From positions 1,328-33,327 of the forward strand of contig JACPWU010000035.1 of NCBI GenBank assembly GCA_016196885.1: a stretch of 32,000 nt of DNA. Direction: 5' to 3'. This document shows positions 1,014 through 28,290 of this stretch, piece by piece. Below the pieces are notes generated by a model that did no database searches, was not told the origin of the DNA, and worked only from the letters and a program-made list of their open reading frames with translations. Made by a program: the position numbers and the translations under genes. This stretch comes from Chlamydiota bacterium. Lineage in GTDB: Bacteria > Auribacterota > JACPWU01. How positions within the stretch are numbered: position 1 is the first letter of the stretch; every line of letters begins with the position of its first letter.

Positions 1014-1094
1014 AAAAATAGTTTTTAGTTCTTAGTTTTGAGTTTTGAGTTTTGAGTTTTGAGTTTTTAGAACTTATAACTTAAAACTATTTTT
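1014..1094. repeat. Heptad hairpin H1 between convergent genes
   Basis: Seven tandem 7-mers lie at 1019-1067 (TAGTTTT TAGTTCT TAGTTTT GAGTTTT x4). Three complementary-sense 7-mers follow at 1068-1088 (TAGAACT TATAACT TAAAACT). The element is clamped by AAAAATAG (1014-1021) and CTATTTTT (1087-1094). It sits between the stop of 179-1012 (+) and the stop of 1093-2340 (-), so it may act as a bidirectional terminator. Confidence 0.8.
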
Positions 1095-2340
1095 AGTACC
1101 ACCCATGATGATCTTCCTGCGTCCCGGGGGTGGGTAAGGATTCTACCCCGGGCCACTCGAGATTTTTGGGAAATTGAACGGCCTTCGTCCCTCCCCCTAA
1201 GGCATCCGGCCTGCTAATTCTAAAGCTATTTTCAATTTGGAAAAGCAAGGTTTTCAGTTCATCCCATCTTTCAATCGAGGCATATCTTAACGTCATCACC
1301 CCGGAAAAACTATTTCCCTGAGAGACCAGGGCCCCTCTTAAAATACCGTGCTTACGCCCAGTGGAAAGATGATCGAATAAAACCTCTCGCTCGATCACCT
1401 TCCAACGCTGGCCCAAGCGGTCAATAAACTCGTCATATTCATGTTCAGATAAAATTTCGACATGGTTGACGGCCGCGGGATCTTGGTCAAAAAGTTTCAG
1501 AAATTCCTGCGGGGTGGGATTACCCGGAAGATAAATAAAAAAATTCACCAGAAAACTATTGAATTCGTCTTCCGAGGTCACCTCGATCGAGTAACGACTT
1601 TCCTTCACCCGCCAACCTTGAGGATATGAAACTTGAAAAACCTGCCCCTCGAATAAATGAAGGGAATCACTTTGAAAAGATTCGAAGCTGTCCCGAGAAC
1701 TTTCCAAGGTCATTTCCAAAGACGGCCATTCATCCAAAGGCGCCCAAATCGCCTCGTAAAAACTGGAATACCCTCTTTGAACCGCACGCACCTTCCCTGT
1801 CACAGGAATTCCAAAAATGGAGCCGGACAACACGGCCTCTATCTCTTCAGGTCTTTCCTTCACCTCTTCCAAAGTCAAATTTGGAAATTGTTTTTTCAGA
1901 ATTTCTTTTTGAATCTCAAATTGGGATTGAAGTAAATCACGCAACGTGCCAGAGGCCTTGCGAATGGGACAAATCAAAACGCAGGCCGTGCGCATCGCCT
2001 CCCGATACACCCAAACGCGGCCCGGTTCAATGTCCAATTTCCAATTTTCGGGAACGCGAAGAGAAAATCCCAAATAGGGCTGCCTAAAAATCCTCATGGG
2101 AAGGACGGAGGCCTTTAGAGGCATGGGTAGTGGAGGATGTTGAGGCAAAACCTCAGGCTGCGCAACCAGGACAGGCTTCGGGGATTCCTTCGCTTCATGA
2201 CGTCGAGGCTCAAGAGAATGCTGAGGAGAAGAAAGGATCAAAATAACCATGCACAAAAAGAAAGACACCCCCAGCCCCGCTGCCATCCTTTGCCCTCTCG
2301 TCCAAGACCTCATTTGAGAAAAAGGAGATAAATGTCTCAT
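1093..2340 (-). CDS. Membrane-anchored protein with two PsbP/DUF1795-like modules (paralog A of the family)
   Basis: The ORF track gives 1093-2457. The first 39 codons run across the divergent promoter and the start of the next gene. I prefer the ATG at 2338-2340 (MRHLSPF...), which lies just before the single TM helix AAGLGVSFFLCMVILILSS. It is a full-length paralog of 6477-7961 (LGFSLRVPENWKL/LGFSIRIPEMWHL; FQVSYPQGWRVKES/FQVYYPDGWQVSET; IYLPGNPTPQEF/IYLPGNPDPFQF; SFSGVM; ERW). Confidence 0.7.
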   Translation of the reverse strand: MRHLSPFSQMRSWTRGQRMAAGLGVSFFLCMVILILSSPQHSLEPRRHEAKESPKPVLVAQPEVLPQHPPLPMPLKASVLPMRIFRQPYLGFSLRVPENWKLDIEPGRVWVYREAMRTACVLICPIRKASGTLRDLLQSQFEIQKEILKKQFPNLTLEEVKERPEEIEAVLSGSIFGIPVTGKVRAVQRGYSSFYEAIWAPLDEWPSLEMTLESSRDSFESFQSDSLHLFEGQVFQVSYPQGWRVKESRYSIEVTSEDEFNSFLVNFFIYLPGNPTPQEFLKLFDQDPAAVNHVEILSEHEYDEFIDRLGQRWKVIEREVLFDHLSTGRKHGILRGALVSQGNSFSGVMTLRYASIERWDELKTLLFQIENSFRISRPDALGGGTKAVQFPKNLEWPGVESLPTPGTQEDHHGWY

Positions 2341-2344
2341 TTTT

Positions 2345-2373
2345 TTGCGAACCCTTGAAAAATGTTCTATAAT
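2345..2373 (+). promoter_or_regulatory. Candidate sigma70-type promoter for the 2411-6183 three-gene cluster
   Basis: TTGCGA (2345-2350), a 17-nt spacer, then a perfect TATAAT (2368-2373). An AAAAGGGAG Shine-Dalgarno lies at about 2395-2403 and the ATG is at 2411. Confidence 0.5.
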
Positions 2374-2410
2374 GAATATATCACTTAAACCTAGAAAAGG
2401 GAGCCATCCG

Positions 2411-3529
2411 ATGAAAAAGTTTCCTCTCGTTTCTTTGACAATTTTGAACTTTTTCATCCTTCATGCGGCCTTTGCCCAATATCCAGGACCCTCGAATTTT
2501 AACGCCAGTCTTCCCTCGGGCCTCACTTATACCCATCCTCAAGGCATTTTCACCCTTCAATTTCCTCAAGGATGGATTCAAACCAATACCACCGATTTAA
2601 GACAGGCGGCCTATTTTATTCTCATTCAAAATGGAACGGCTCTCGCAGAGGCGGCCATTTATGTAGAAACCCTCTCGCAAACGGTGACACCTCAAATGTA
2701 CGCCATTGGAGTAGAAGAAAACACGCTGCGTCGCACACCGGGTTATCAAAAGGCCGCTGAAAATGTAGTGGCCATCAACGGTCAAATGGCGGCCTATCGT
2801 GAATTTTCTTATTCAGCCAACCTTCAGGGGCAGACGAAAATGGTTTTGTCCGCACACTATTATTTTGTGGTGGGAAATTTGGCCTATCTGCTTCATTTCG
2901 CGACTTATCCAGAAATCGCTCCGCAAGTGAAAAATCAATTTCTTCAAATTGCGCAGAGTTTCAAAATCTCGGGTGGCTCAGCGATGAATACCCCCCTCTA
3001 TCAACAAAACACCAGCATGAATCTTTATCCCAATACGACTGGGCCCGTCCAAAACAATGCCCCTGTCTATAATCCTTATGCATCACAAACCAATCCGAAC
3101 CCTTATGTCTCTGCGACCCCTATCAACTCAGGCAATCCTCAAGACGTGAACTCCCCAGAATTTATACAGCGATGGATGCAAGAGCATCCCTATGAACCCC
3201 CTCCTGTGGATAACCGCATGACGCAGCAATTAGACGCCATGGCCAAACAATGGCAGGCCCAGCATCCGGCCCCGACCGTGCCAACTCAAAATGCCCTCAA
3301 CACAAATCCTTACAATCCGCCCCTGCCACCGACCCAGCAAACGGGAAATGCGACGACTTTTACCATGAATCAACAAACGCCTTTGTCCCAAACGCCCATG
3401 CCTCAGACTCAAAAGGAGGAGCCTCTTCCCGCGCCACAACCGCTCCCAGAGATCGCACCTGTAGCACAAACGGTCCACACGACTCCAGAGGCAACACCCA
3501 CAGATTTAGAAGGAGAGAATCAGCAGTGA
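2411..3529 (+). CDS. Secreted protein P1: one PsbP/DUF1795-like module plus a long Q/N/P-rich tail
   Basis: The ORF track starts at 2345. The ATG at 2411 is preceded by an AGGGAG RBS and opens a classic signal peptide (MKKFPLVSLTILNFFILHAAFA|Q). The N-module (YTHPQGIFTLQFPQGWIQT...YYFVVGNLAYLLHFAT...QSFKI) is paralogous to those in 3663-5087, 5092-6183 and 14240-15616. The region from aa ~188 onward is low-complexity Q/N/P/T. Confidence 0.75.
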   Translation: MKKFPLVSLTILNFFILHAAFAQYPGPSNFNASLPSGLTYTHPQGIFTLQFPQGWIQTNTTDLRQAAYFILIQNGTALAEAAIYVETLSQTVTPQMYAIGVEENTLRRTPGYQKAAENVVAINGQMAAYREFSYSANLQGQTKMVLSAHYYFVVGNLAYLLHFATYPEIAPQVKNQFLQIAQSFKISGGSAMNTPLYQQNTSMNLYPNTTGPVQNNAPVYNPYASQTNPNPYVSATPINSGNPQDVNSPEFIQRWMQEHPYEPPPVDNRMTQQLDAMAKQWQAQHPAPTVPTQNALNTNPYNPPLPPTQQTGNATTFTMNQQTPLSQTPMPQTQKEEPLPAPQPLPEIAPVAQTVHTTPEATPTDLEGENQQ

Positions 3530-3540
3530 AAAACAGTCCG

Positions 3541-3629
3541 CAGTCGCCCGATTTATCGGGCAGTCTATGCATTGTCCCATAAATAGGGCGACTACAAGGG
3601 ATTTGCCCGATAAATCGGGCGACTACAAG
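3541..3629. repeat. REP/MITE-like composite palindromic element, copy A (three sub-hairpins)
   Basis: It contains cAGTCGCCCGATTTATCGGGC (3541-3561), TCCCATAAATAGGGCGACTACAAG (3575-3598) and GCCCGATAAATCGGGCGACTACAAG (3605-3629). It shares the GCCCGA-N4-TCGGGC and GCCCCA-N4-TGGGGC hairpins and the CGACTACA terminus with copies at 6406-6460 and 21731-21800. Confidence 0.8.
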
Positions 3630-3662
3630 TTATTGGTAAAGGACTCTACCTTGAAATCCAGC

Positions 3663-5087
3663 ATGCTCAAACTTTTCGGGGGGGCATTGCTGATCTTCCT
3701 CAGTCAGCCACCGATGCCCTTTGCCCAAAATCTTTTACCCACGCCCGGGTACGCCATCACCTATCAAGATCCTCAACAGAGATTCGTCATCAGCTTTCCT
3801 TCGGGATGGCAGCAAGCGAAACCGCCATCACCCGAGGCCCAAGCCTATTTTTCTTACACACAAAATGGCGCCGTCATCGCAGAGGCTATTGTTTATTCGT
3901 ATCAACTCCCCCATCAAATGAATGTCTCTGATTTTCAGTCCGCGATCTTTCAAAAAACCATCCTTCCCCATATCAACACCATGACACCTGACCCCGCCAG
4001 CAACAGCCTCAAAAATTTTGGCATGACGACAAGCCTTCTCTCTGAATATGATTACAATCCCAAAACTCCCATGAGAATGAGGCACTATTATTTTGTCCAC
4101 GTCTACACCGCCACAGGGATTGTGATTCGCTTTGACACCTTCAAACAATATTGGCCGATGATGATCCCAAAATTTGAAGAGGTCATGGCCACGTTTAAAA
4201 TAGGAATTAGCAATATCACCCTGGAACAATTGGCCGAGCAAAATCTCGTGGCAGGAAGTGTGACCCCGCCCCTGCTTCAAAATCCGAAGGCCTACATGCC
4301 GGATTATCCTTGGGATGTTTCACCCCAGGCCACCCCCTATGACGAAGAGATGCTCATCAACATCCGTGTCCTCAAAAATTTGGTTCAAAACGATCCCACT
4401 TTAAAAAGCACCCTCCCCGAAATCGAAAAGCGCGAAAAAGAAGTCGAACAAAGAATTCAAAACAGCCTCGAGAAAAATAAAAGAAAGGAGCTTGAGGCAC
4501 TCCATCAAAAACCAGGGGAGGGACCTCTCCCGAAAGACTCCGCCGTCTCCACCGTTTTGAATGTGAAGCCTCCCGCAAATTTAACAGGAGATATTTATGG
4601 CGAAATCCAAAAAGCCCCACCTCGTCCCACCCCCGAAGAAACCCAAATTGCTGTAGAAGCCGATCTCGTTCCTTGGCAAGATCCCTTGGAGCGCTTCTCC
4701 CTCATTTATCCGAAGGGATGGGCGAAAACCCAAAAAGGGGCGTGGTATCTTTCTTTTGATGGACCCGAAGGCAATCAGATTTTGGTCTTGTCCTTCATGG
4801 ACCCTTCTTTCTCTGCAGAATATTTAAAGCAATTGCTCAAAAATCAGCCTCCCCTTGCACAAAAGGAAGTCACACTCAAAAATGCCGAGAAAGCCCAAAT
4901 GCTCACGTTTCAAACCCGGAATGAAGAGTCACCTGACGCCGAAGAAATGATCGTGACCTCCATTTCACCCGAAAAATCAAATTTACTCTTTTTAATTCGC
5001 TTTTCAAAAGAACGCTACGAAGGCAACAGGGGTATGGTAAAAAAAATCATTGAGGTATTGATTGCGGGAATTGAACTGAAAGGATAA
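3663..5087 (+). CDS. Secreted protein P2: two PsbP/DUF1795-like modules joined by a charged/coiled linker
   Basis: The ORF track starts at 3567, but those 32 codons translate the REP element. The ATG at 3663 opens a signal peptide (MLKLFGGALLIFLSQPPMPFA|QN). The N-module is YQDPQQRFVISFPSGWQQ... and the C-module is WQDPLERFSLIYPKGWAKT... The linker is K/E-rich (EIEKREKEVEQRIQNSLEKNKRKELEALHQK). No clear SD precedes 3663, so the start is uncertain. Confidence 0.65.
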   Translation: MLKLFGGALLIFLSQPPMPFAQNLLPTPGYAITYQDPQQRFVISFPSGWQQAKPPSPEAQAYFSYTQNGAVIAEAIVYSYQLPHQMNVSDFQSAIFQKTILPHINTMTPDPASNSLKNFGMTTSLLSEYDYNPKTPMRMRHYYFVHVYTATGIVIRFDTFKQYWPMMIPKFEEVMATFKIGISNITLEQLAEQNLVAGSVTPPLLQNPKAYMPDYPWDVSPQATPYDEEMLINIRVLKNLVQNDPTLKSTLPEIEKREKEVEQRIQNSLEKNKRKELEALHQKPGEGPLPKDSAVSTVLNVKPPANLTGDIYGEIQKAPPRPTPEETQIAVEADLVPWQDPLERFSLIYPKGWAKTQKGAWYLSFDGPEGNQILVLSFMDPSFSAEYLKQLLKNQPPLAQKEVTLKNAEKAQMLTFQTRNEESPDAEEMIVTSISPEKSNLLFLIRFSKERYEGNRGMVKKIIEVLIAGIELKG

Positions 5088-5091
5088 AAAC

Positions 5092-6183
5092 ATGAAAAAA
5101 ATACTGTTTTCTCTTCTCTGCATTTTGGGTATCACCCCTTTTATTTTTGCTCAACCCTCTCCAGGACTTTCTTATCGGCATCCGGACGGAAGTTTTCAAA
5201 TTCAGTTTTCCGCCGGCTGGGTTCAAACGCAAACGACGAGCCCCGTCCAATCAGCCTATTTCGTTTTTTACCAAGGGAACATGCCTGCGGGAGAAATGAT
5301 CGTTTTCATTGAACCCCTGATGCAGCCTGTGACCGCTCAAGCATATGCCTGGAACGCTGAACAAAACTCGCTGAGGGGCCTTCAGAATTATCAAGAGGCC
5401 TCTGAAATGCCCATCTCCATCGCGGGTCAAGGCGCGATCGTTCGCCAATTCAGCTACACGCAAAATCTGAAAGAAATGACCCAAATGATCGCAGCGGAAG
5501 AATTTTATTTTGTTTTTGGGAATGCGGCCTACACCTTTCATTTTGGAACCCATGCCCACCTCTATCCGCAAGTGAAACCTCAATTTGACGAAATTATTCG
5601 GACCCTTCAGCTTTTCGCAACAGGACCTCTCCCTCCCACAACGGCCGCAGCCACAACTCCAACATTAACCCCTCATCTTCAAAGTTTGAGCGAGAACCCT
5701 TCCCCAACGCCCCCTCTCCAAACTCAAACACCGGACAACACCTGGGTTCCTTCTCCTCAAGTGCTTCCCACCCCAGAAAAAATATTCGGTCTCAAACCCT
5801 ATCAGGACCCCAAAGGAAAATTTTCCATGCAAGTCCCTGACCGCTGGCTCACCACGGAAAGCGCAAGCGGACTCATGAGTGTCTCAGGAAAAGGGCATGT
5901 CATCTCTGTGGAAATTTTTCCGGGGCCTGAAACGGTAGATGTCATGCAATCCATTAAAACCCGGGGCAAAACCATTGTGTCCCAAGGGACTCGGGTGATT
6001 CAAGGAATGAATGGAACGGAAATCATTTTCAAAGACAAGGACCCTCAAGGATGGGATGTGATTGAAACATTGATAATCCTAAAGGAAAAGAACGCCCTGG
6101 TCAGTTTCATCGCCCCTGAAGCCGAATATGAAAGCATCAAGTCCAGCCGCGATGAGATTTTGAAAAGCTTGAGGTTTGCATAA
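5092..6183 (+). CDS. Secreted protein P3: two PsbP/DUF1795-like modules joined by a P/T-rich linker
   Basis: An AAAGGA RBS lies about 10 nt upstream. The signal peptide is MKKILFSLLCILGITPFIFA|QP. The N-module is YRHPDGSFQIQFSAGWVQT...FYFVFGNAAYTFHFGT and the C-module is YQDPKGKFSMQVPDRWLTT... The linker is PLPPTTAAATTPTLTPHLQSLSENPSPTPPLQTQTP. Confidence 0.75.
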   Translation: MKKILFSLLCILGITPFIFAQPSPGLSYRHPDGSFQIQFSAGWVQTQTTSPVQSAYFVFYQGNMPAGEMIVFIEPLMQPVTAQAYAWNAEQNSLRGLQNYQEASEMPISIAGQGAIVRQFSYTQNLKEMTQMIAAEEFYFVFGNAAYTFHFGTHAHLYPQVKPQFDEIIRTLQLFATGPLPPTTAAATTPTLTPHLQSLSENPSPTPPLQTQTPDNTWVPSPQVLPTPEKIFGLKPYQDPKGKFSMQVPDRWLTTESASGLMSVSGKGHVISVEIFPGPETVDVMQSIKTRGKTIVSQGTRVIQGMNGTEIIFKDKDPQGWDVIETLIILKEKNALVSFIAPEAEYESIKSSRDEILKSLRFA

Positions 6184-6215
6184 ATGCGCTAAAATGATAT
6201 AATAACTATACCATT

Positions 6216-6385
6216 ATGGAATTCGGGTACGACGAACATAAAAGCACATCTAACAAAATCAAAATGTTGATTTTCCCAATTGGGTGATTCGTTCTTTGGA
6301 CAGAGAAGCAAGAAAATTGGGAGTGACACGGCAATCGCTTATCAAGTTATGGATCGCCGATCATTTTAGACAGCTTGCCAGATAA
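6216..6385 (+). pseudogene. Decayed BrnT/BrnA-like (DUF497 toxin / CopG-type antitoxin) remnant
   Basis: 6216-6287 encodes only MEFGYDEHKSTSNKIKMLIFPIG*. Its start resembles the DUF497 N-terminus (F.WDE.K...N..KH). In another frame, 6254-6385 reads ..NVDFPNWVIRSLDREARKLGVTRQSLIKLWIADHFRQLAR* with no proper start codon. That resembles the C-terminal RHH-like part of BrnA-type antitoxins (vdfP.w....LD.eA.rlGv.RQ.lIK.wi...l). Confidence 0.45.
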
Positions 6386-6405
6386 CACCCTTGTAGACTT
6401 ATATT

Positions 6406-6460
6406 TGTAGTCGCCCCATTTATGGGGCCGTCCATTTGCCCGATGAATCGGGCGACTACA
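6406..6460. repeat. REP/MITE-like composite palindromic element, copy B
   Basis: TGTAGTCGCC-CCATTTATGGGGC-cgtccattt-GCCCGATGAATCGGGCGACTACA. It has perfect 10-bp terminal inverted repeats (6406-6415 / 6451-6460) and two internal hairpins. A partial TTGTAGAC lies at 6391-6398. Confidence 0.85.
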
Positions 6461-6476
6461 AATCAAGTGTATCTGT

Positions 6477-7961
6477 CTACTCCAAAATAATATCTGTCGG
6501 ATCCTGTGGATTCACATAGCCTCCTCGCGTGGGATCATAATCTTGAGGCGTTACCCACACCGCTTGTCCCGTCTTCTCGGAATCCCGATAGCCCCCGCCC
6601 TGCATGTATTCTCCCCATTTTTCACCCACCAGATCATTGGACTGGGTTTTTGCCTCCCAGCTTTCCATCACGCTGGAGGTGTCGGCGGGATGATTGGCCG
6701 GTAAAACCATGCCTTTCACCCCGCCCCCCAAAAGCTCTGGATGCAGGACCTGAAAACTTTTTTCAATCGCTTCTAGAAGGGATGAGACCGATTCCCATCG
6801 CTCGAGGGGGGCCTGTCGAATAGACATCACGCCTGAGAAGCTCACCATTTGCCTTAAAATTCCAGAGGTCATCGCCGCCCTCAATCGGCGGCCCTGCCAG
6901 TCATATTCCATGATGCGCCCGCCCATTCTCCAAGTTTGCCCGATGGCGTCTGTCATGTCCGCATAAGATTTTTGATCGAGAATGACGCTATTTTGAAGTT
7001 TGTCACCCAGATTGCGAAGGGCAAAATCCATGAATTGAAAGGGATCGGGATTGCCCGGCAAATAAATGGAAAGCCCTATCGAAACCGCTGTCTCATCTTG
7101 TGGGTCTTTCACATCAATACCATTTAAGGTCTCACTCACCTGCCAACCGTCTGGATAATAAACCTGAAAGGCATTCCCCTGATAAAGCTTCAGAGGCTCG
7201 CCTTGAAAAGTTTCAAAACTCTCTGCAATCACTTGAAGCATTTCTTCCAAACCTTCCCATTCTTTTTGACGCGCCCAATAGGCTCGATAAAGACCGCGCC
7301 TCCCCTCCAAAGAAACTTTTGCCTTTCCTTGAATGGGAATCCCCGCTAAGACGCCCGAAAAATCAGCTGTCGCAAGCGTCTCTCTTTCATCCACCGCTCC
7401 CAGACTTAAACTGTTTCCACTTTTTTGATAAATGGCCTGATCTATTTGGAAGCAACTTCTCAAAAATTCTGTCAGGGTTAAACCCTTTTTTAAAAAAACG
7501 GGATAAACCACCACCCCCGTCAAGGCCTGAGGTTCCCGCTTCACCAAAATCTTTCCCTGCATGGCATGGAGATGCCACATTTCCGGAATCCGAATCGAAA
7601 ATCCCAGAAAGGCATCACGATAAACTGTCATGGGAAGCGACACACTTGGTTTCCTGACGGCCGTCAGTGGAATGGGAGTCACTCCCGTCACTCCTGAACC
7701 TTTCCCGATGGGGATTTGAGAACCATCGGGGAGTTCAAGAAATTGAGCAGAACCCCAAGAGGGCTCTGTCACTTTTGTTGTCACAGAAGAAGGACGAGAC
7801 ACCCCAGGTGTTTCTTGATCTATTTTTTGCCTGGCCTCATTTCTCTTCCATGAAAAAATGAAAGCAAGGCTGACAAAAGTAAAAAATCCCACCGTCACCA
7901 AAATTTTTTGGCGCAGGGACCAAGCACCCACCTGAGACAGGAATGAAAAGCACTTTTTCAC
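6477..7961 (-). CDS. Membrane-anchored protein with two PsbP/DUF1795-like modules (paralog B), last gene of the sensor-kinase operon
   Basis: 494-aa ORF with the N-terminal TM helix ILVTVGFFTFVSLAFIFSW. It is a paralog of 1093-2340 (see that entry). Its ATG overlaps the stop of the upstream REC-HK gene (ATGA at 7958-7961), implying translational coupling. It has an extra Gly/Asp/Pro-rich C-terminal extension. Confidence 0.75.
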   Translation of the reverse strand: MKKCFSFLSQVGAWSLRQKILVTVGFFTFVSLAFIFSWKRNEARQKIDQETPGVSRPSSVTTKVTEPSWGSAQFLELPDGSQIPIGKGSGVTGVTPIPLTAVRKPSVSLPMTVYRDAFLGFSIRIPEMWHLHAMQGKILVKREPQALTGVVVYPVFLKKGLTLTEFLRSCFQIDQAIYQKSGNSLSLGAVDERETLATADFSGVLAGIPIQGKAKVSLEGRRGLYRAYWARQKEWEGLEEMLQVIAESFETFQGEPLKLYQGNAFQVYYPDGWQVSETLNGIDVKDPQDETAVSIGLSIYLPGNPDPFQFMDFALRNLGDKLQNSVILDQKSYADMTDAIGQTWRMGGRIMEYDWQGRRLRAAMTSGILRQMVSFSGVMSIRQAPLERWESVSSLLEAIEKSFQVLHPELLGGGVKGMVLPANHPADTSSVMESWEAKTQSNDLVGEKWGEYMQGGGYRDSEKTGQAVWVTPQDYDPTRGGYVNPQDPTDIILE

Positions 7962-17626: not shown

Positions 17627-17628
17627 GT

Positions 17629-18357
17629 TTAATCCGAATCCTTGCCTTTCATCAAGGCCAACATCTCTTTCACAGCCCTTTCCAAACCGACAAAAATGGC
17701 TCGGGAGACGATGGCGTGACCAATGTTCACTTCTTCCAAATAAGGCATTTTCAAAATCGGCAGAATGTTTAAATAATGAAGCCCATGCCCCGCATGAACG
17801 ACTAAACCATATTGATGGGCCAATTGCGCCGATCGAAAAAGAAGTTTCAAAGCTTCCTCTTGTTTTTTGGGGGTGGCCGCGTTTGCATAATTTCCGGTGT
17901 GAAATTCTACAAATTGGGCACCGGCCTCCTGAGAGACCTCCACTTGATGAAGATTTGGCTCAATAAAAAGACCCGCAGCAATACCGACTGCCTGAAGTTT
18001 CTTTAAAGTGGTTTGGAGAGAATTTTTGTGACGCTCCACATCCAATCCCCCTTCCGTGGTCAGTTCCTCTCTTTTTTCAGGAACCAAGGTCACCTGATCC
18101 GGCTTGATCTGAAGGGCGATTTTGAGAATGGAAGGAATAGAAGCCATTTCTAGATTCAATCTAGACCGAACCGTTTTTTTTAAAATTTCTAGATCCCTGT
18201 CCTGAATATGCCGTCTGTCTTCCCTCAAATGAACGGTGATGTTGTGCGCCCCAGAGAGTTCACACACCGCCGCAGCCCAGACAGGATCTGGTTCACGCGC
18301 CTCCCGCACCTGACGTAAAGTTGAAACGTGATCGATGTTGACACCGAGATGGATCAT
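17629..18357 (-). CDS. pdxJ: Pyridoxine 5'-phosphate synthase
   Basis: 242 aa. LGVNIDHVSTLRQVR..REPDPVWAA...GAHNITVHLREDRRHIQDRD...NLEMA...VTLVPE...ELTTEGGLDV...FHTG.YA...HAGHGL.Y.N are PdxJ hallmarks. Confidence 0.92.
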   Translation of the reverse strand: MIHLGVNIDHVSTLRQVREAREPDPVWAAAVCELSGAHNITVHLREDRRHIQDRDLEILKKTVRSRLNLEMASIPSILKIALQIKPDQVTLVPEKREELTTEGGLDVERHKNSLQTTLKKLQAVGIAAGLFIEPNLHQVEVSQEAGAQFVEFHTGNYANAATPKKQEEALKLLFRSAQLAHQYGLVVHAGHGLHYLNILPILKMPYLEEVNIGHAIVSRAIFVGLERAVKEMLALMKGKDSD

Positions 18358-18364
18358 AAAAGCC

Positions 18365-18400
18365 GTCGTGAGTTGTGAGTGGTGAGTTAAAATCCACGAC
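18365..18400. repeat. Heptad hairpin H2 (short), glmM-pdxJ spacer
   Basis: TCGTGAG TTGTGAG TGGTGAG lies at 18366-18386. The stem is GTCGTG (18365-18370) paired with CACGAC (18395-18400). Confidence 0.55.
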
Positions 18401-18413
18401 CATCAATCAATGA

Positions 18414-19769: not shown

Positions 19770-19787
19770 GATAAAACCCCCCGAAAA

Positions 19788-19868
19788 TAGTCCACAGTCA
19801 ACAGTCGATAGTCCATGGTTTTAAAGAAATGATTGATTTCTATGGACTATGGACCGTGGACTATGGAC
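19788..19868. repeat. Heptad hairpin H3, cdaR-glmM spacer
   Basis: The left arm is TAGTCCA CAGTCAA CAGTCGA TAGTCCA (19788-19815). The loop is 19816-19840. The right arm is TATGGAC TATGGAC CGTGGAC TATGGAC (19841-19868). About 25 of 30 arm positions pair in my hand alignment. A T5 run lies at 19872-19876. Confidence 0.85.
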
Positions 19869-19881
19869 TCCTTTTTATCTT

Positions 19882-21616: not shown

Positions 21617-21676
21617 GAACTCCTAAATCAAAAATCAAAGATCAAAAATCAAAACTAAGGAAGAATATTAATTTTA

Positions 21677-21694
21677 ATGATCTTTCGAGATCAT
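21677..21694 (-). terminator. Candidate small hairpin (attenuator/terminator) downstream of folP
   Basis: ATGATCT-TTCG-AGATCAT forms a perfect 7-bp stem. On the minus strand it is followed by the A/U-rich stretch TAAAATTAATATTCTT. The stem is weak for a canonical intrinsic terminator (low GC). Confidence 0.3.
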
Positions 21695-21730
21695 CGTGTG
21701 CGATGAAAGTTCTCCCCATCATGCTTTTTT

Positions 21731-21800
21731 TGTAGTCGCCCGATTCATCGGGCAATCCATGCAAGGGGCACACGGCAGCCCCATAAATGGGGCGACTACA
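21731..21800. repeat. REP/MITE-like composite palindromic element, copy C
   Basis: TGTAGTCGCC-CGATTCATCGGGC-aatccatgcaaggggcacacggca-GCCCCATAAATGGGGCGACTACA. It has perfect 10-bp terminal inverted repeats (21731-21740 / 21791-21800). Confidence 0.85.
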
Positions 21801-21837
21801 GAATGAGCTTCACTTTCATAGCAATAAATACAACTCC

Positions 21838-22731
21838 TTAATTTTGCATTTTGATTTTTGGATTTTGATATTTTTCAATCTCCTCTAACATCTTTAAAAC
21901 ATCTTTCGTGGCTTGAACATCATGAACCCGTATGATAGAAGCTCCGTGATAATAGGAAGCCGCAACACAGCCTAGACTTCCCGCAAGACGTTCTTCCACG
22001 GGGCGATTTAAAACAGTGCCGACAAAAGATTTTCGAGAGACCCCGATGACCAGAGGTGCTATTTCCTTAAAAGATTCTAGATTTTTCAAAAGTTCCAGAT
22101 TCTGCTGGGCATTTTTTCCAAAACCTATTCCCGGATCAATCACCACTTGTTCAGGGTCAAGCCTATTTTCCGAAGCGAAATGAAGTCTCTCGCGAAAAAA
22201 TTCATGAAGTTCATCGAGGAGTGAATCATAATACGTATTCTCCTGCATGGTTTGAGGGACGCCTCGCATGTGCATCAAGACAAGGCCCGCTTGAAAGTCA
22301 CGGATGACAGAAATCATTTCCGGATCTCTCAAACCCGAAACATCATTGACAATGCTGGCACCCGCATCCATGGCCATGCGAGCCACCGAAGATTGACAGG
22401 TATCCACAGAAATGGGGATGGAAAGACGAGAACTTAAAACGGAAAGGACAGGTAAAATTCTTTCAGCTTCTTCCTGCCCATCCAGAGCTACCGAACCCGG
22501 CCGGGTGGACATGCCACCCATGTCCAACACATCAGCTCCCTCTTGAGCCAGCCGAAGACCGTGTTCTACCGCCCTCTCAAAGGTAAAATGCCTTCCTCCA
22601 TCATAAAACGAATCCGGCGTAACATTGAGAATCCCCATGACCAGAGGTTTTTGGAGTGAAAGGCTTCGCCCTTTGATTTTCCAAAATACATTCTTATTGT
22701 CATGAAGCAGTTCCAACATTCGTATTTCCAT
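21838..22731 (-). CDS. folP: Dihydropteroate synthase
   Basis: [42 protein letters not shown] and RVHDV motifs are present. The start is either the ATG at 22731 or the one at 22719. Both overlap the ftsH stop at 22700-22702. Confidence 0.92.
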
Positions 22732-24634
22732 TGAATTCCTCCGGACTCCTTCTTTTGAGAAGGCGCCCGTACGGATTGATCGAGGGTGTCACTTGGGGAA
22801 CCACCTTACCGTCAATAATGGCTTCTACCTCCTTACCCTCCATCACTTCTTTCTTGAGCAGGGTTTCGGCAAGGGCGATCAACTTGTCCTTATTTTCCAA
22901 AATCAATTTTCTAGCCCGTTGATAACTCTCATCAATGATCCGCCTCACCTCTTTATCAATGTCAATCGCCGTAGACTCTGAATAATCCACCGATCGAGTA
23001 ATCTCACGCCCCAGAAAGATATGTTCTTCTCTTTCCCCAAAAGTCATGGGCCCCAGTTTCTCGCTCATGCCCCATTCGCAGACCATTTTTCGGGCCAAAT
23101 TCGTCGCATTTTTAATGTCATTGGCGGCCCCAGAACTGATTTCCCCAAACATGACTTCCTCTGCAACACGGCCTCCCATCATGCCCGCAATCTGACCCAA
23201 AAGCTCTTTCCTGGACTCTGTGTACCGATCCTGCTCAGGAAGCTGCATGGTGGCCCCCAGATAGGCCATGCCACGAGGAATGATCGTGACCTTATGCAAT
23301 GGCTCGGTCTCTGGCAAAAGATGTAGCACCAAGGCATGCCCCGACTCATGATAAGCCGTGATTCGGCGATCCTCTTCTGAAATGGTGCGGCTTCTTCGCT
23401 CACGGCCCCAGCGCACTTTATCACGGGCCTCTTCCAATTCCTCAAGCCCAATAGATTTCTTATCGTTGCGAGCTGCCAAAAGCGCAGCTTCATTCACCAA
23501 ATTAGCCAAATCCGCTCCCGAAAATCCGGGTGTTCCCCGAGCCACGACTGAAAGATCTACATCTTTCGTCAACATGACTTTCTGTGTATGCACTTTCAAA
23601 ATGCCCAGTCGGCCCTGCAAATCCGGTAAATCCACCACCACCTGACGGTCAAATCGCCCGGGCCTCAAAAGCGCAGGATCCAAAACATCCGGCCGATTGG
23701 TCGCCGCCATGATAATCACACCTTCTTGCGTATTAAAGCCATCCATCTCGACCAGAAGCGCATTTAAAGTTTGCTCCCGCTCATCATGACCTCCACCAAT
23801 CCCGGCCCCGCGGTGGCGGCCCACCGCATCAATCTCATCAATAAAAATAATACAAGGGGCATGCTTTTTCCCCTGCTCAAAAAGATCTCGGACCCGGCTT
23901 GCCCCCACGCCCACAAACATCTCTACAAAATCGGAACCACTGATCGTGAAAAAAGGGACATCTGCCTCTCCTGCCACAGACTTGGCCAATAAAGTCTTTC
24001 CGGACCCCGGTGGACCCATTAATAAAACGCCCTTGGGGATGCGCCCGCCTAATTTTTGAAATTTCTTAGGGTCTTTTAAAAACTCAATAATCTCCTGAAG
24101 CTCTTCCTTGGCCTCATCCACGCCGGCCACATCCTTAAAGGTGACCTTGTCACGCTCTTTGGTGAGAAGCCTCGCACGCGACTTTCCAAAACTTAAGGCA
24201 CCCGTGCCCACCCCCTTCACCTGACGATACACAAAGAACCACAAGAAGCCGATAAAAAGAAGCATGGGCGCCAAAGAAAAAAGGAGATTGGTCCATATAT
24301 TTGTCTCCGGCTGAATCATAAAATCGCGCACATTTTTTCTCAAAACCGCGATCAAGGCGGGATCCTGAGGAGGAATGTTTAAGATAAATCTCTGCCCGTC
24401 CGTATATTCTCCCCGAACGATCTCACCCATCAATTCGGCTTTTTGAACATCGCCATTTTTGACGGACTCATAGAACTGGCTGTAACTGGGGTGGCGAACC
24501 CCTCGGCGAGCAATGTTATTAATTTGAAAGAGATAAAGGAGACCAATCCCCACCAAAAGCCAAATCACCACGGGTTTAAGAGGGCGTCTATCCATAAAGT
24601 CTTTTGAAAAACCTTTCTTTTTCTTGGGTACCAT
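22700..24634 (-). CDS. ftsH: ATP-dependent zinc metalloprotease FtsH
   Basis: 644 aa with two TM helices. Walker A is GPPGSGKT and Walker B is IIFIDEIDA. The SRH is [19 protein letters not shown] and the HEsGH zinc site is AYHESGHAL. Confidence 0.97.
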
Positions 24635-24688
24635 ATCAATCCCTTAACCTTTCTTTTGTAGCATAAATAAGGGTTCCCTGGCAATAGT

Positions 24689-24762
24689 TAGTCCACAGTC
24701 GATGGGATAGTCCATGGACAAAAACAGGATACCCTATGGACCATGGACTGTGAACTATGGAC
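24689..24762. repeat. Heptad hairpin H4, recR-ftsH spacer (same unit as H3)
   Basis: The left arm is TAGTCCA CAGTCGA (tggga) TAGTCCA (24689-24714). It ends in the perfect palindrome GTCCATGGAC (24710-24719). The right arm is TATGGAC CATGGAC TGTGAAC TATGGAC (24735-24762). A T5 run lies at 24763-24767. Confidence 0.85.
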
Positions 24763-24765
24763 TTT

Positions 24766-25365
24766 TTATAAAGCCCTCCTGGCCTCTAAAGCCCTTGCCA
24801 AAGTCAATTCATCTGCGTAATCGAGGCCCATTCCCACGGGGAGACCATACGCAATGCGCGTCACAGAAATATTTTCTTCTTCTAGCAACTCCCCCAGATA
24901 AAGAGCCGTGGCCTCCCCCTCCACATCCGTTCCCGTAGCCAAAATGACCTCACGCACCTTGAGCTTGCGCACCCTTTCAAGCAAGCTCTCCACTTTTAAA
25001 TTCTCAGGACCCACGCCATCCAAGGGGGAAAGCTTTCCCATCAACACATGATACAGGCCGTGGAAACTCACAGATTTTTCAATCATCAACGCATCCTTGG
25101 CCTCCTCAATGACGCAAATCAATCCACGATCTCTTTTCTCGTCCTGACAAATCGAGCAAATCTCTTCCTCGGTAAAGAGATAACATTCTAAACAGGGACG
25201 GATTCTGGTTTTAGAGGTCACCAGCGTTTGAGCAAATTGTTGAGTTTTATTTAGGGGAGATTTTAATAAAAAAATCGCCATCCTCTCGGCCGTCTTCGTC
25301 CCAATCCCGGGAAAGAGTTTAAAGGCTTCAACCATATCTTGAAAAGCGTCTAGTTTGTATGTCAT
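24766..25365 (-). CDS. recR: Recombination protein RecR
   Basis: MTYKLDAFQDMVEAFKLFPGIGTKTAERMAIFLL is an HhH motif, as in RecR N-termini. A C4 zinc finger (CLECYLFTEEEICSIC) and a Toprim domain (VIEEAKD...ATGTDVEGEATA) follow. The ORF track adds 21 upstream codons from a GTG at 25428. Those codons only translate the heptamer array. Confidence 0.9.
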   Translation of the reverse strand: MTYKLDAFQDMVEAFKLFPGIGTKTAERMAIFLLKSPLNKTQQFAQTLVTSKTRIRPCLECYLFTEEEICSICQDEKRDRGLICVIEEAKDALMIEKSVSFHGLYHVLMGKLSPLDGVGPENLKVESLLERVRKLKVREVILATGTDVEGEATALYLGELLEEENISVTRIAYGLPVGMGLDYADELTLARALEARRAL

Positions 25366-25366
25366 A

Positions 25367-25453
25367 TCGTCGTTCGCCGTTCGTTGTTCGTCGTTCGTTG
25401 TTCGTCGTTCGTTGTTCGTCGTTCGCACTCGTTTTAACGAAATACGAACAACA
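25367..25453. repeat. Heptad hairpin H5, dnaX-recR spacer
   Basis: Eight tandem units lie at 25367-25422 (TCGTCGT TCGCCGT then (TCGTTGT TCGTCGT) x3). This gives a 14-nt superperiod. The complementary units ACGAAAT ACGAACA AC lie at 25437-25452. Confidence 0.85.
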
Positions 25454-25473
25454 GTATATGAGCGACTGCTTTT

Positions 25474-27246
25474 TCACCTTTTAATATCTGTAATCTTCCC
25501 TTCAAACATTGCCAACGCCTTCTGAATCACAGGATCATCTTGGATGGCAGAAGCAATATTTGAAAAAGAACCGGGAGCAGAAGATTCACCTTCTACCAAA
25601 GAATCTGCCTCTACCAATTCCAGAGAAATTTCTTTTCCCCCAAGCCGGCGCAACTCATCCTGAATCCACTTAAAATGATTTTCATTCTTCAAAGATTCTA
25701 AACAAAAACTTTTCGAAGGTGAAAAAGAAAGCCGCACCTGATTCATCTCAAAAGAAGGAAAGGCCTCTTTTAAATAAGCATGTAAAAGGGGTTTATGCTG
25801 AAATGCATTTTCTAAAAATTTTTTCCAAAGTTCAGGATTAAATTCACTTCTCTCACCCCTATCCGTCATTCCCGCAGGCTTCAACGAAGTAGCCCCAGAA
25901 AGGGGTAAGCGGGAATCCAGAGTTTTCGTACTTGAAATCAATGGATCCCCGACCACGATAGTGGCACCCTTCGGTGTTAAAGATTTCGGGGATGACGGGT
26001 CTGTAGATTTTTTGGCTTCATGATAAGACAAGTATTCTTCAGCTTGACTCACTGAACCGTTTTTTTTTCCGCCGTCGCGAGTCACTTCTTTAATTGGTTC
26101 TAAAGCCCCCTTCTCCAAAGACCCCACTTTTTCAATGAGATGCTCAAGGCTCACTGCCCGGCTGGTCAAATAAAGACGGACCGCCAAGGCCTCCAAGGTC
26201 ATCCGTTTCGAAAGGGAAAATTTCAAACGATCCTCTGCCTCTAAAGTCACATCTAACATTTGAAGCAATAAATCTCTCGCAAAAAATGAGATTTGATTTT
26301 TCAACTTTTGAATGTCTTCACTCGCAAGTTCAATCAAGTCTGAGCCCTGGTCATCCAGCTGTAGCATCAAAAGATCCCTGAAATGCGTCGCCAACTCACT
26401 GACAAAAAGAGTTAAATCCTTCCCCTCCCGGTCCATTTTTTGAATGGCCGAAAAAAGCCCTTTCCAATTTCCCTCCCTCAGCGCCTGAAAAAATACCATC
26501 ACCTCATCTCGAGAAATACATCCCAAAATCTGCAAGGCCTCTTCATATTTTAAAGTTCCACCCGAAAAAGAAACAAGCTGATCCAGCAAACTCTGGGCAT
26601 CTCTCAGGCTTCCATCCGCTACCTTGGCCACGGCAAAAAGGGTTGGGTCATCGGCCTTCCATTTTTCCTTTTTCACAATCCCTTTCAAGCAATCAAAAAT
26701 TTCCTGCGTCGAAATTTTTCTTAAACCGAAATGCTGGCACCTCGAAAGAATGGTTGTGGGAACACGATGGGCCTCCGTCGTCGCAAAGAAAAATTTCACA
26801 TGAGCGGGGGGCTCTTCCAATGTTTTCAAAAGCGCGTTGAACGCCTCCTGGGTAAGCATATGCACTTCATCAATGATGTAAATTTTAAAGGGGCTCGAGG
26901 CAGGTGAAAATTTCACATTGTCTCGGAGCTCTCGAATTTGATCAATCCCGCGGTTGGACGCCCCATCAATCTCCAAAACATCCAGGCTGGTTCCAGCGGA
27001 AATTTCCTGACAGTTAACACACTTGTCACAGGGGTCCGCCGTGGGGCCCTTTTTACAATTGAGCGCCTTGGCCAAAAGACGGGCAGTGGTTGTTTTCCCA
27101 ACCCCTCGCGGCCCACTGAAAAGATAGGCATGTGCAACGCGACCCATGGCAATGGCATTCCTCAAGGTGGTCATCACGTGATTCTGACCCACCACCTCTT
27201 CAAATTGCTGCGGCCGCCATTTTCGCGCCAAGACAAGATAGCTCAA
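25474..27246 (-). CDS. dnaX: DNA polymerase III subunits gamma/tau
   Basis: The gene has a TTG start with an AAGGAG RBS 10 nt upstream. MSYLVLARKWRPQQFEEVVGQ, Walker A GPRGVGKTT, a Zn module CDKCVNC, DEVHML and SRC motifs are present. An A9 run follows domain III (see the regulatory feature at 26060-26068). Confidence 0.95.
   Translation of the reverse strand: MSYLVLARKWRPQQFEEVVGQNHVMTTLRNAIAMGRVAHAYLFSGPRGVGKTTTARLLAKALNCKKGPTADPCDKCVNCQEISAGTSLDVLEIDGASNRGIDQIRELRDNVKFSPASSPFKIYIIDEVHMLTQEAFNALLKTLEEPPAHVKFFFATTEAHRVPTTILSRCQHFGLRKISTQEIFDCLKGIVKKEKWKADDPTLFAVAKVADGSLRDAQSLLDQLVSFSGGTLKYEEALQILGCISRDEVMVFFQALREGNWKGLFSAIQKMDREGKDLTLFVSELATHFRDLLMLQLDDQGSDLIELASEDIQKLKNQISFFARDLLLQMLDVTLEAEDRLKFSLSKRMTLEALAVRLYLTSRAVSLEHLIEKVGSLEKGALEPIKEVTRDGGKKNGSVSQAEEYLSYHEAKKSTDPSSPKSLTPKGATIVVGDPLISSTKTLDSRLPLSGATSLKPAGMTDRGERSEFNPELWKKFLENAFQHKPLLHAYLKEAFPSFEMNQVRLSFSPSKSFCLESLKNENHFKWIQDELRRLGGKEISLELVEADSLVEGESSAPGSFSNIASAIQDDPVIQKALAMFEGKITDIKR
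26060..26068 (-). promoter_or_regulatory. dnaX: A9 slippery run in dnaX (candidate frameshift / transcriptional-slippage site producing a gamma-like short product)
   Basis: The minus strand reads GGC GGA AAA AAA AAC GGT at codons 392-396 (of 590), just after clamp-loader domain III. The -1 frame reads AAA CGG TTC AGT GAG TCA AGC TGA, with its stop at 26039-26041. The +1 frame reads ACG GTT CAG TGA, with its stop at 26049-26051. Confidence 0.5.
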
Positions 27247-27309
27247 GTGTTTTTTCTCCTTTGACTAGCTTAACCTATTCTCACATCTTCAAGCAAGAAC
27301 GATCAAAAA

Positions 27310-28020
27310 TCAAAGGCCTGCAATCGCTAAAAAATTCCTAAAAAGAGTTTTGCCTACCTTGCCATATTCTTCCCTGAGAAAAGCAAAGTCGCGTCTTAAT
27401 TCGTCCTGATTCAATTCCAGTAAATCGGGATCCTCCTGAATCCAAAGTTCAAACATCTCAGGTGTTAATTCAAAATGCCCTTGAATCCCATAGGCTCTAT
27501 CTGCCACCTTTACAATTTGGTTCTGGCAAAATTTCCCTTTTCCCAAAAGCGTCATTTCTTTTGTTAACACCACTGCCTCTCCATGGAGATGGAAAATTGT
27601 AGACTGATCACTCAGACCTCTCAGCAAAGGATCTTTCTTCCCTTCAGAGGTCAACTCAACCTGAAAAATACCCCCTTGGGGATCCCTGAAACCTATTTCT
27701 TTGACCGGACTTTTAACCACTTGGCCTCCCGAGGCCTTCACCAAAACCTGAAGCCCCAGGCAAATACCCAAATAAGGAATTTTAAGATCGAGCGCTTCAC
27801 GAACTTTTGCCAATTCTATTTCCATTTTGGGTGTTTCATCATTCGCACTGTCAGGCCCTCCCAAAACCACCCAGGCAGAAAAATCACGGGGTGAAGGACA
27901 TGAAAGACCCCGATTCAAATCGATCAATTCGTAAGGGAGGGTCTTTTCTCTTAAAAGACCTTCAAGGATTCCTGGTCCTTCCCCTGTAGCGTTTTGAAGA
28001 ATTAAAATTTTAGGATTCAT
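27310..28020 (-). CDS. Class I glutamine amidotransferase-like protein (GuaA-N/GATase1 type)
   Basis: The 236-aa protein has VVLGGPDSAND, the nucleophile-elbow PYLGICLGLQVL, and FHLHGE / GIQGHFE His-Glu-type motifs. Confidence 0.75.
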   Translation of the reverse strand: MNPKILILQNATGEGPGILEGLLREKTLPYELIDLNRGLSCPSPRDFSAWVVLGGPDSANDETPKMEIELAKVREALDLKIPYLGICLGLQVLVKASGGQVVKSPVKEIGFRDPQGGIFQVELTSEGKKDPLLRGLSDQSTIFHLHGEAVVLTKEMTLLGKGKFCQNQIVKVADRAYGIQGHFELTPEMFELWIQEDPDLLELNQDELRRDFAFLREEYGKVGKTLFRNFLAIAGL

Positions 28021-28196
28021 TTCACTCCTGACAAAATTATGAAGAAGTCAGAATAGACCTCTTACAAGTCAGTTCATTAAGTTTTATCCATAAGTTTTGA
28101 CAGTACTAAGGATAAGGCGGATAGGAACTATAACCAGAAAGATTATCCATGTATAGTGGAATATAGCCTCCTTGGTAAACAGGGTTTACAATTGAA

Positions 28197-28272
28197 AAAA
28201 ATGAAGAGTTAAGAATGAAAAGTGAAAAATTCTAAAGGGAAGTTCATTCTTCATTTTTCACTTTTCACTTTT
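28197..28272. repeat. Heptad hairpin H7 in the divergent GATase/dusB spacer
   Basis: The left arm is AAAAATG AAGAGTT AAGAATG AAAAGTG AAAAATT (28197-28231). The loop is 28232-28244. The right arm is CATTCTT CATTTTT CACTTTT CACTTTT (28245-28272). Confidence 0.85.
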
Positions 28273-28290
28273 CCCTGCTATACTGTGCCC

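Follow-up and report, generated by a model that had tools for sequence, protein, structure and literature searches.

Where do hairpins come from whose two arms are both tandem arrays of a seven-nucleotide unit, and what do they do in the spacers of an essential bacterial operon? The question is raised by a 32,000-nt stretch of a metagenome-assembled genome (MAG) labelled Chlamydiota bacterium (assembly GCA_016196885.1, contig JACPWU010000035.1, positions 1,328 to 33,327 of the forward strand). We refer to the whole stretch as the window, and all coordinates are counted from its first letter. An initial annotation, made from the letters alone, had described seven loci in it, H1 to H7, at which copies of a 7-nt unit face copies of the reverse-complement unit, and had taken these heptad hairpins for an undescribed class whose unit is specific to each locus. 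Here we show that the architecture has already been published: the window holds a known repeat type in a new lineage, and no new kind of element is required. At most loci two convergent inverted arrays form a long imperfect palindrome in the spacer, and the units belong to a few families common to loci and to very distant bacteria. The reading that we favour, with a probability of roughly 0.55, is that the loci are heptanucleotide repeats of the STRR/LSSR type: palindromic, selfish or neutral DNA grown by slippage, with incidental RNA effects like those of REP elements or terminators.

Period-7 arrays and their pairing in the window

The window has a G+C content of 46%, and 2173 of its bases (6.8%) are intergenic. 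By Pfam it carries on the minus strand the string dnaX, recR, ftsH, folP, cdaA, cdaR (with a YbbR domain), glmM and pdxJ; its other genes include two-component kinases, a GATase and a Dus enzyme. Is seven truly the period of the arrays? A lag-p self-match scan found eight runs at period 7, compared to 0.12 in shuffled sequence, two at period 9, one at period 11 and none at periods 4-6, 8, 10 or 12, which bears out the 7-nt period that the loci were said to have in common. Six of the eight runs fall in the intergenic 6.8%. Head-to-tail 7-nt copies beyond chance and over-representation in non-coding DNA, both found here, are features of heptanucleotide tandem repeats (STRR/LSSR).

Tandem Repeats Finder calls period-7 arrays, of 3 to 8.4 copies, at all claimed loci but H4: at 1020-1067 (6.9 copies), 1067-1088, 18368-18388, 19840-19869, 21625-21654, 21840-21874, 25367-25425 (8.4 copies), 28197-28230 and 28250-28273. 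H4 was missed because it is too degenerate; it nonetheless folds well. Heptad arrays occupy seven of the 12 window spacers longer than 50 nt, and five of the six within the dnaX-pdxJ string, in agreement with the claim that these are nearly all filled. One convergent junction (H1) and one divergent junction (H7, GATase/dus) are occupied as well, as had been stated. The density is seven loci per 32 kb, and the arrays mostly begin about 3-21 nt past the upstream stop codon. The further claim that none lies in a gene interior holds for the placement in general but fails for H6, one arm of which lies within the 3' end of folP.

Do the loci pair as proposed? The paired layout is seen at H1, H3, H4, H6 and H7, is lopsided at H5 and is absent at H2. 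An inverted-repeat search found arms that are 82-90% complementary at H1, H3, H5, H6 and H7, and the pairing of H4 was confirmed by folding. RNA folds were scored as z against dinucleotide shuffles.

H3 (19784-19874, minus strand) folds at -43.2 kcal/mol and z -6.3. Its AGTCNAY array (19784-19816) faces a RTNGACT array (19842-19874) across a 25-nt loop, the 33-nt arms are 82% complementary, and the hairpin fills the cdaR-glmM spacer from about 10 nt past the cdaR stop. In H4 (24690-24763, minus strand), which is separated by about 3 nt from the recR stop and by about 95 nt from the called ftsH start (24595), an AGTCNAY-type arm at 24690-24719 faces an arm at 24734-24763 (-32 kcal/mol, z -4.7). 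H1 (1014-1094, unstranded) lies between convergent genes with stops at 1012 and 1093. About seven AGTTNTN units (1019-1067) face three NANAACT units (1068-1088), clamped by AAAAATAG/CTATTTTT; the arms, 1014-1037 and 1071-1094, are 88% complementary, and the folds reach -21.5 kcal/mol on the plus strand and -11.9 kcal/mol on the minus strand (z -2.8 and -3.6). H7 (28197-28273, unstranded) sets a RTGAANA array (28197-28230) against a TTCAYTY array (28243-28273); its arms, 28197-28230 and 28243-28272, are 83-90% complementary, with z -3.75 and -2.95.

The arms of H6 (21625-21873, minus strand) stand far apart. Its ATCAAAR array (21625-21654) stops about 10 nt short of the cdaA start and is opposed by a TTTTGNW array (21842-21873); the paired segments, 21630-21654 and 21849-21873, are 84% complementary at a distance of 194 nt. 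H5 (25367-25452, minus strand), in the dnaX-recR spacer, is unequal: 8.4 TCGYYGT units (25367-25425; Tandem Repeats Finder score 90-104) face about two units (25436-25452). It adjoins the recR start codon (25365), and no Shine-Dalgarno sequence is present. Its arms, 25383-25413 and 25436-25452, are 88% complementary in two registers 14 nt apart; the two-unit arm pairs with several registers of the eight-unit arm. The frequency of the minimum free energy (MFE) structure, 0.014-0.023 for H5 and H1, agrees with the proposed sliding of the stems between registers. The fold of H5 is not significant (z -0.9), and its centroid is unpaired at an MFE frequency of 0.014. H2 (18365-18400, minus strand) does not belong among the pairs: in the glmM-pdxJ spacer a single three-unit NNTGAGT array (18366-18388; 3.0 copies) is enclosed by a 6-bp clamp, GTCGTG/CACGAC, with no inverted array, and the fold (z -0.26) is no better than shuffled sequence. 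A two-unit stub of the H6 unit, GATCAAA AATCAAA at 27301-27314 (minus strand), had also been counted as a family member; alone it is indistinguishable from chance, with about 43 such 6-of-7 lag-7 matches expected per 32 kb.

Were the hairpins selected at the RNA level, the mRNA strand might fold better or hold more G-U pairs than its complement. No such signal was seen: the mRNA strand folds better in four and worse in five of nine operon hairpins, and the absence of a strand preference fits palindromes at the DNA level. As for termination, an intrinsic (Rho-independent) terminator has a U-tract immediately after a G+C-rich stem of about 5-14 bp. U-tracts are present at H1 (T5 past the stem on both strands), H3 (UAUUUUC) and H2 (U4), and H4 and H5 have none on the mRNA strand. 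A scan for the terminator consensus matched only a sub-stem of H4, on the non-coding strand, and no Rfam family, intron or otherwise, reached its gathering score in the window.

What happens where an array meets a gene? The H6 arm at 21842-21873 overlaps the last ten codons and the stop of folP (21838-21873). The ten-residue C-terminal tail of FolP is a translated heptad array, and in five relatives the homologous protein stops right before it. In H7 it is the right arm that falls within the called dus open reading frame (ORF), whose deposited start, GTG 28222, is inside H7; the Dus domain begins at residue 38 of this frame, and therefore ATG 28292 is probably the true start. A mechanical ORF list starts recR at GTG 25428, within H5, compared to the called start at 25365. 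For annotation, the arrays account for at least two gene-end problems (the FolP tail, and the ORF starts of recR and probably dus), and the hairpins account for most long spacers of an otherwise compact operon.

Hairpins in relatives and in tol operons

Are the hairpins a conserved part of the operon? Through RecR homologues of 64-70% identity we found five other genomes with the same gene string. One of them, L008 (GCA_016178055.1), carries heptad hairpins in five spacers of the operon. Two of these were folded, with z -5.8 and -7.5; the first is the folP-cdaA hairpin, the orthologue of H6, which is uninterrupted in L008. As in folP of the window, an array has entered a gene end: an ATCAAAA array at 18282-18312 lies within the 3' end of acpS. 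The other four genomes (L006, L131, L134 and L136) have no arrays, or one weak array, in the same gene string. Their junctions are compact: dnaX and recR are separated by 1 nt in L006, 8 nt in L134 and 47 nt in L131, and cdaR and glmM overlap in L006 and L134. Hairpins are therefore present in two of six syntenic lineages, the window and L008. The six are about equidistant (69-79% mean identity over four proteins), and the window is equally close to hairpin-free L131 and to L008. From the four lineages without hairpins and their compact junctions we conclude that the hairpins are lineage-specific additions to spacers and not conserved operon parts.

L009 and L010 are the same DNA as L008, and these three independent assemblies carry identical arrays, their sole difference being one unrelated 56-nt indel. 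A comparison of unit copy number between them accordingly reveals no slippage polymorphism, and the worry that the arrays are artefacts of assembly is not borne out. Could the loci still be chance matches or products of mis-assembly? The source is a short-read MAG, in which tandem repeats mis-assemble, and the stub and H2 are weak taken alone. Set against this are the excess at period 7 only, the agreement of the three assemblies and the recurrence of the same architecture in unrelated metagenome assemblies and in finished Xanthomonas and Nostoc genomes, and we give the explanation next to no credence.

Where orthologous junctions both carry a hairpin, the unit may differ: at cdaR-glmM it is AGTCCAT in the window and AGTTCAA in L008. 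The tol genes of Acidobacteriota provide a second case. L039 is an Acidobacteriota genome (the relatives of its TolB are named Thermoanaerobaculia or Acidobacteriota), and an AGTCNAC hairpin of -66.5 kcal/mol (z -9.5) fills its tolQ-tolR spacer. Two relatives, with TolB 88% and 84% identical, also carry a heptad hairpin between tolQ and tolR, built of GATAGTC and AAGGCGN units. The tolR-tolA spacer likewise holds a heptad hairpin in L039 and L138. These tol-spacer hairpins lie at 5445-6090 in L039, 8617-8725 in L137 and 6189-6806 in L138. This is concerted replacement: the unit changes on both arms, and the hairpin and its position persist.

Does such persistence mean that the hairpins are selected as RNA? 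On this explanation they would be intercistronic terminators, attenuators or mRNA stabilisers that set relative expression, and the heptads a by-product of stem lengthening. The explanation draws on the hairpins kept despite unit turnover at tolQ-tolR (three Acidobacteriota) and at cdaR-glmM and folP-cdaA (two MAGs), on the start of the arrays so close past the upstream stop, on the A-run 5' and T-run 3' of H1, H3 and the L008 pdxJ-acpS hairpin, and on the Xanthomonas arrays, which are mostly transcribed and stop-proximal (PMC4692102). However, four of six lineages do without hairpins in the same essential operon, with junctions that overlap or measure 1-8 nt. The transcribed strand is not favoured in folding energy, neither H5 nor H2 folds significantly, the folP coding sequence has taken up one arm, and Rfam recognises no family. 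We therefore regard selected RNA elements as an unlikely account of the loci.

Unit families across genomes

The unit had been called specific to each locus. This proved incorrect: H3 and H4 have the common unit AGTCNAY, as do two hairpins of L008; H6 and the orthologous folP-cdaA hairpin of L008 are both built of ATCAAAA, with the L008 glmM-pdxJ hairpin in the same unit family; and AGTC units recur in diverse contigs. H3, H4 and the L008 dnaX-recR and pdxJ-acpS hairpins, which sit at four different junctions, align with a mean column identity of 66%; they do not differ in the right arm, T.GACTGTGGACT, and the loop is common to three of them.

How far does this sharing extend? We searched metagenomes with one arm only, GACYRTYGACTGTGGACT, and obtained at least 120 contigs of 29-70% G+C. 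The match count is not used as evidence. At any one site the pattern is expected by chance with a probability of about 2e-10, but for a collection of unstated size this yields no chance rate; the raw count proves nothing, and it is the surroundings of the matches that carry weight. The figures that follow hold among the matches listed. An inverted partner lies within 200 nt in 33 of 105 arrays away from contig ends, compared to 0 when the flanks are shuffled. The partner is always upstream, giving the layout 5'-(AGTCNAY)n loop (RTNGACT)n-3', and among paired period-7 arrays the 5' arm is of the AGT kind in 35 and of the ACT kind in one. More than 150 nt from the match, these loci contain 98 further period-7 runs, of many units, compared to 4.4 in shuffled sequence. 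In the window, the relatives and the metagenome loci together (687 kb, 85.7% in ORFs), 107 period-7 runs lie outside ORFs, 16 across an ORF end and 64 inside, whereas 20 of 20 period-6 runs and 27 of 37 period-9 runs are inside ORFs. The AGTCNAY core is kept at 29-70% GC (A.90, G.97, T.94, C.95, N, A.85, Y), a profile partly forced by the search pattern.

Several candidate associations and rules were tried on these arrays and rejected. A link with phages was dropped, the pattern that matches at least 120 metagenome contigs having one viral-contig match; a blastn search of H3 against PLSDB plasmids gave no match, possibly owing to low-complexity masking. A general unit rule of four fixed positions, N, fixed, N, as in Xanthomonas GGGANTN, fits AGTCNAY, AGTTNTN of H1 and TTCAYTY of H7. 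Elsewhere it is not significant: of 19 other unit families, nine have their variable columns two apart, seven have them adjacent and three have them three apart. A HutP-like UAG-N4 periodicity in H3 and H4 was abandoned because the other units lack it.

Two further kinds of repeat touch on the question of mobility. Between the arms of H6, at 21723-21808 (unstranded), lies a GTAG-tagged REP dimer, GTAGTCGCCCGAT..GGGC / GCCCC..GGGGCGACTAC, with other copies at 3536-3628 and 6403-6463. The pattern is a short palindrome, GCCC(C/G)AT-NNN-AT(G/C)GGGC, present inverted and enclosed by outer GTAGTC...GACTAC, in agreement with the GTAG-REP description of PMC3733652. These REP/REPIN-like dimers are a family separate from the heptad repeats, whose periodic arms of 20-55 nt carry no tag. 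Two AGTC-type heptads (ACAGTCC GCAGTCG) precede the copy at 3536, which itself opens AGTCGCC. The second kind is an element of about 105 nt, TAAGTAGGTAAATAGAAATAATCGT...GTGAGACTGTGGACTGCCGACTATTGACTGTGGACTACTTA, whose 3' part is made of AGTC heptads. Among the matches listed it occurs at 11 loci (L032, L041, L049, L057, L069, L078, L101, L103, L115, L120 and L128), and in view of its TAAGTAG/CTACTTA termini and unrelated flanks it looks like a MITE. In L057 its heptad part is duplicated. L100 and L107 contain three copies of a block of about 1.45 kb, each of which follows a TTTCAATCCCGCAAAGCGGGACAGG motif and ends in ...CCGCTTGCCAACTGATGACCGTTGACTGTGGACTGGAAATC.

Might the hairpins themselves be non-autonomous mobile elements of the REP/REPIN or MITE kind, palindromes copied by a host or insertion-sequence enzyme (HUH/RAYT-like, for example) and altered by slippage later? 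Several observations would suit such elements: the four related AGTCNAY hairpins at different junctions of two genomes, with their invariant right arm and largely common loop; the single orientation of all 33 paired arrays and the 105-nt element at 11 unrelated sites, both among the matches listed; the REP dimers whose outer stem opens AGTCGCC; and a patchy distribution among equidistant relatives, which is typical of mobile DNA. On the other hand, the loops are unrelated between distant genomes, one genome holds many unrelated units (ATCAAAA, TCGYYGT, RTGAANA), and about two thirds of the AGTC arrays among the matches listed are single-armed. Neither the window nor the loci revealed a target-site duplication, a transposase or a RAYT gene. 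Moreover, orthologous junctions keep the hairpin while the unit changes, which looks like evolution in place. We consider mobility possible but doubtful as the origin of the loci.

The conserved AGTC-N-A-Y core at 29-70% GC among the matches listed could alternatively mean that the loci are binding arrays, read in a 7-nt register on RNA or DNA by a protein with post-transcriptional or nucleoid-level control. H5 adjoins the recR start without a Shine-Dalgarno sequence, the units of H1, H2 and H6 fit the Nostoc P6b classes NNTGAGT or TDNGATT, and for TAACTGA repeats upstream of Beggiatoaceae start codons binders of the S1, Csp or CsrA type have been proposed (MacGregor 2015, PMC4679880). Yet a single reader protein would leave the five or more unrelated units of one 32-kb window unaccounted for, no candidate gene was found, a single-strand binder needs no palindromic layout, and the Beggiatoaceae repeats are direct, not inverted (169 vs 1; PMC4679880). 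Such arrays are a very improbable explanation.

Could all heptad hairpins form a single pan-bacterial class, the product of a mechanism with a 7-nt measure and one direction of building, rather than independent accidents of slippage? We think this improbable, though four observations suggest it: the unit repertoire common to Nostoc (TDNGATT, NNTGAGT), a PVC-type MAG and Acidobacteriota (AGTCNAY); the core conserved across 29-70% GC; the one orientation, at 33:0 and 35:1 (this and the core among the matches listed); and the replacement of the unit on both arms in concert at conserved junctions where the hairpin persists. If it were true, the generator would be a dedicated enzyme (a HUH/RAYT-like nuclease or a hairpin-acting repair polymerase) or a horizontally spreading agent.

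Proposed growth by slippage and the known systems

How, then, could slippage give rise to these loci? In the favoured scenario the arrays would grow, shrink and homogenise by slipped-strand mispairing in 7-nt steps at the DNA level, which would account for arms of different length (7 vs 3, 8 vs 2) and for units that resemble one another more inside a locus than across orthologous loci. The partner arm would arise, or be renewed, by hairpin-templated copying (template switching), or copies already palindromic would disperse; by either route the single orientation 5'-(AGTCNAY)n ... (RTNGACT)n-3' would be preserved. The spacers would have been colonised by selfish or neutral DNA and not by conserved regulators. 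Arrays transcribed within the dnaX-pdxJ string and between converging genes would form stems of about -22 to -43 kcal/mol that may act, REP/BIME-like, as barriers to 3' exonucleases or as partial terminators. Judging from its sequence, H1 is the best candidate for a working bidirectional terminator, because it has T5 on both strands at a convergent junction.

Some observations sit poorly with this scenario. What simple slippage explains least well is the strict orientation together with the conserved AGTC-N-A-Y core; a core kept at 29-70% GC is not what pure slippage predicts and hints at a sequence-reading factor or at mobility. In H3, variant units are not mirrored between the arms, and the template switching between arms is a step that we infer. 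Selection for structure could lie behind the hairpins that persist at one junction in the three Acidobacteriota, and likewise in the window and L008. The heptad stems greatly exceed typical terminators in length and are rich in A and U, and on the mRNA strand most, such as H4 and H5, have no clear U-tract. The identical arrays of L008, L009 and L010 are, by their identity, uninformative on slippage. The rivals discussed above (mobile elements, selected RNA and binding arrays) each explain part of the data.

Some features of the window lie apart from the hairpins. A 21-nt (3 x 7) imperfect tandem repeat of 2.8 copies at 14854-14913 lies inside the ORF 14240-15616, beside 9-nt CAGCAGCAA repeats, and is probably a coding glutamine-rich repeat. 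ORFs 3567-5087 and 6477-7961 have sub-threshold matches to the PsbP domain (22.5 and 20.2 bits, compared to a cutoff of 23.5), and ORFs 1093-2457, 2345-3529 and 5092-6183 have no Pfam match.

Which described repeats do the hairpins resemble? A likeness to STRR and to REP/BIME hairpins had been noted at the outset, and both are borne out. STRR, classically those of Calothrix and Nostoc, number about 100 copies per genome, and the STRR3 unit, CAACAGT, equals a unit variant within H3 (..CAGTCAACAGTCG..). They were reportedly described by Mazel et al. in 1990 as tandemly amplified heptanucleotides, with several unit families per genome, dispersed and mostly non-coding, and are said, in the title of a 1997 paper by Vioque, to lengthen helix P12 of RNase P RNA. 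A brief mention in the literature credits Calothrix PCC 7601 with three tandemly repetitive heptanucleotides. In contrast to the loci of the window, STRR are defined as direct arrays specific to heterocystous cyanobacteria, and inverted pairing is not in the definition. The host differs as well: the source and its closest RecR relatives are labelled 'Chlamydiae bacterium', and AGTC-type arrays occur in an Acidobacteriota contig.

That no class of paired inverted heptad arrays had been described, as the initial annotation supposed, is contradicted by two systems, the GGGAATC pairs of Xanthomonas (PMC4692102) and the P6b stem of Nostoc (PMC3488679, PMC4476775). In Xanthomonas, Rehm et al. 2015 found 183-186 GGGAATC arrays of 2-26 units per genome, 89-93% of them intergenic; their mean distance from the upstream ORF is 28 nt, and each genome has 70-75 convergent inverted pairs able to form stem-loops. 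The arrays are mostly transcribed, and their lengths vary between related species (PMC4692102). The likeness is close: tandem heptads that are intergenic, nearer to the end of the preceding ORF than to the following one, and arranged as convergent pairs in a single orientation. H1 and H3 to H7 are pairs of this kind, with two same-unit arrays on opposite strands and convergent; H2 is not. Xanthomonas, a gammaproteobacterium unlike the PVC-type MAG, uses one G-rich unit per genome that is read as forming G-quadruplexes, whereas the window has several AT-rich or mixed units together, none capable of a quadruplex: AGTTNTN, AGTCNAY, ATCAAAR, TCGYYGT and RTGAANA lack the G-tracts of GGGNATC.

The P6b stem of the Nostoc trnL(UAA) intron consists, in the accounts that two later papers give of Costa et al. 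2002, of degenerate heptanucleotide repeats pairing with their complement, of Class I (TDNGATT) or Class II (NNTGAGT). In these accounts the class has shifted repeatedly, copy number varies on one or both sides, and non-heptad elements have been inserted (PMC4476775, PMC3488679). Both the inserted elements and the replacement of the unit class with retention of structure are paralleled here, the former by the REP dimer in H6. Even the units fit in part: Class I is matched by TTTGATT in three of the four units of H6, and Class II by TTTGAGT, four times, in H1 and by CGTGAGT, TGTGAGT and GGTGAGT in H2, while H3, H4, H5 and H7 have other units. P6b, however, is one locus in a cyanobacterial self-splicing intron, the group I intron of tRNA-Leu(UAA), whereas the window, from a non-cyanobacterial genome, has its arrays in many ordinary spacers, all between protein genes.

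REP, BIME and REPIN elements are, like the heptad hairpins, intergenic imperfect palindromes, mostly downstream of genes and often in inverted dimers; they are transcribed, have been proposed as mRNA stabilisers or terminators, are patchy between strains and are regarded as selfish DNA (PMC3733652). They differ in being single stems of 20-40 bp with a GTAG tag, a RAYT transposase and no internal period, while the heptad hairpins are tandem and untagged. The comparison with MITEs is limited to related copies at different junctions, no target-site duplication or clean boundary being definable. TAACTGA repeats of Beggiatoaceae, cyanobacteria and Bacteroidetes (MacGregor 2015, PMC4679880) and the heptanucleotide elements of Geobacter metallireducens (PMC2700814) are likewise intergenic tandem heptads in distant phyla, often beside start codons, as H5 is, and with several unit types per genome; unlike the hairpins they are almost exclusively direct repeats with one dominant unit (169 direct vs 1 indirect in Beggiatoaceae).

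What does the window add? Heptanucleotides are, as a later paper summarises Mrazek 2007, the commonest long simple repeats in bacteria, and for the origin of this long-noted excess sister genomes with and without hairpins in one and the same operon offer a clean comparative system. The rule of a single orientation, which also holds for the Xanthomonas pairs, and the sharing of units across phyla merit study at genome scale. With our results, the range of paired heptad hairpins, so far cyanobacteria and Xanthomonas, comes to include a PVC-type lineage and Acidobacteriota, with a handful of unit families recurring across phyla in fixed orientation.

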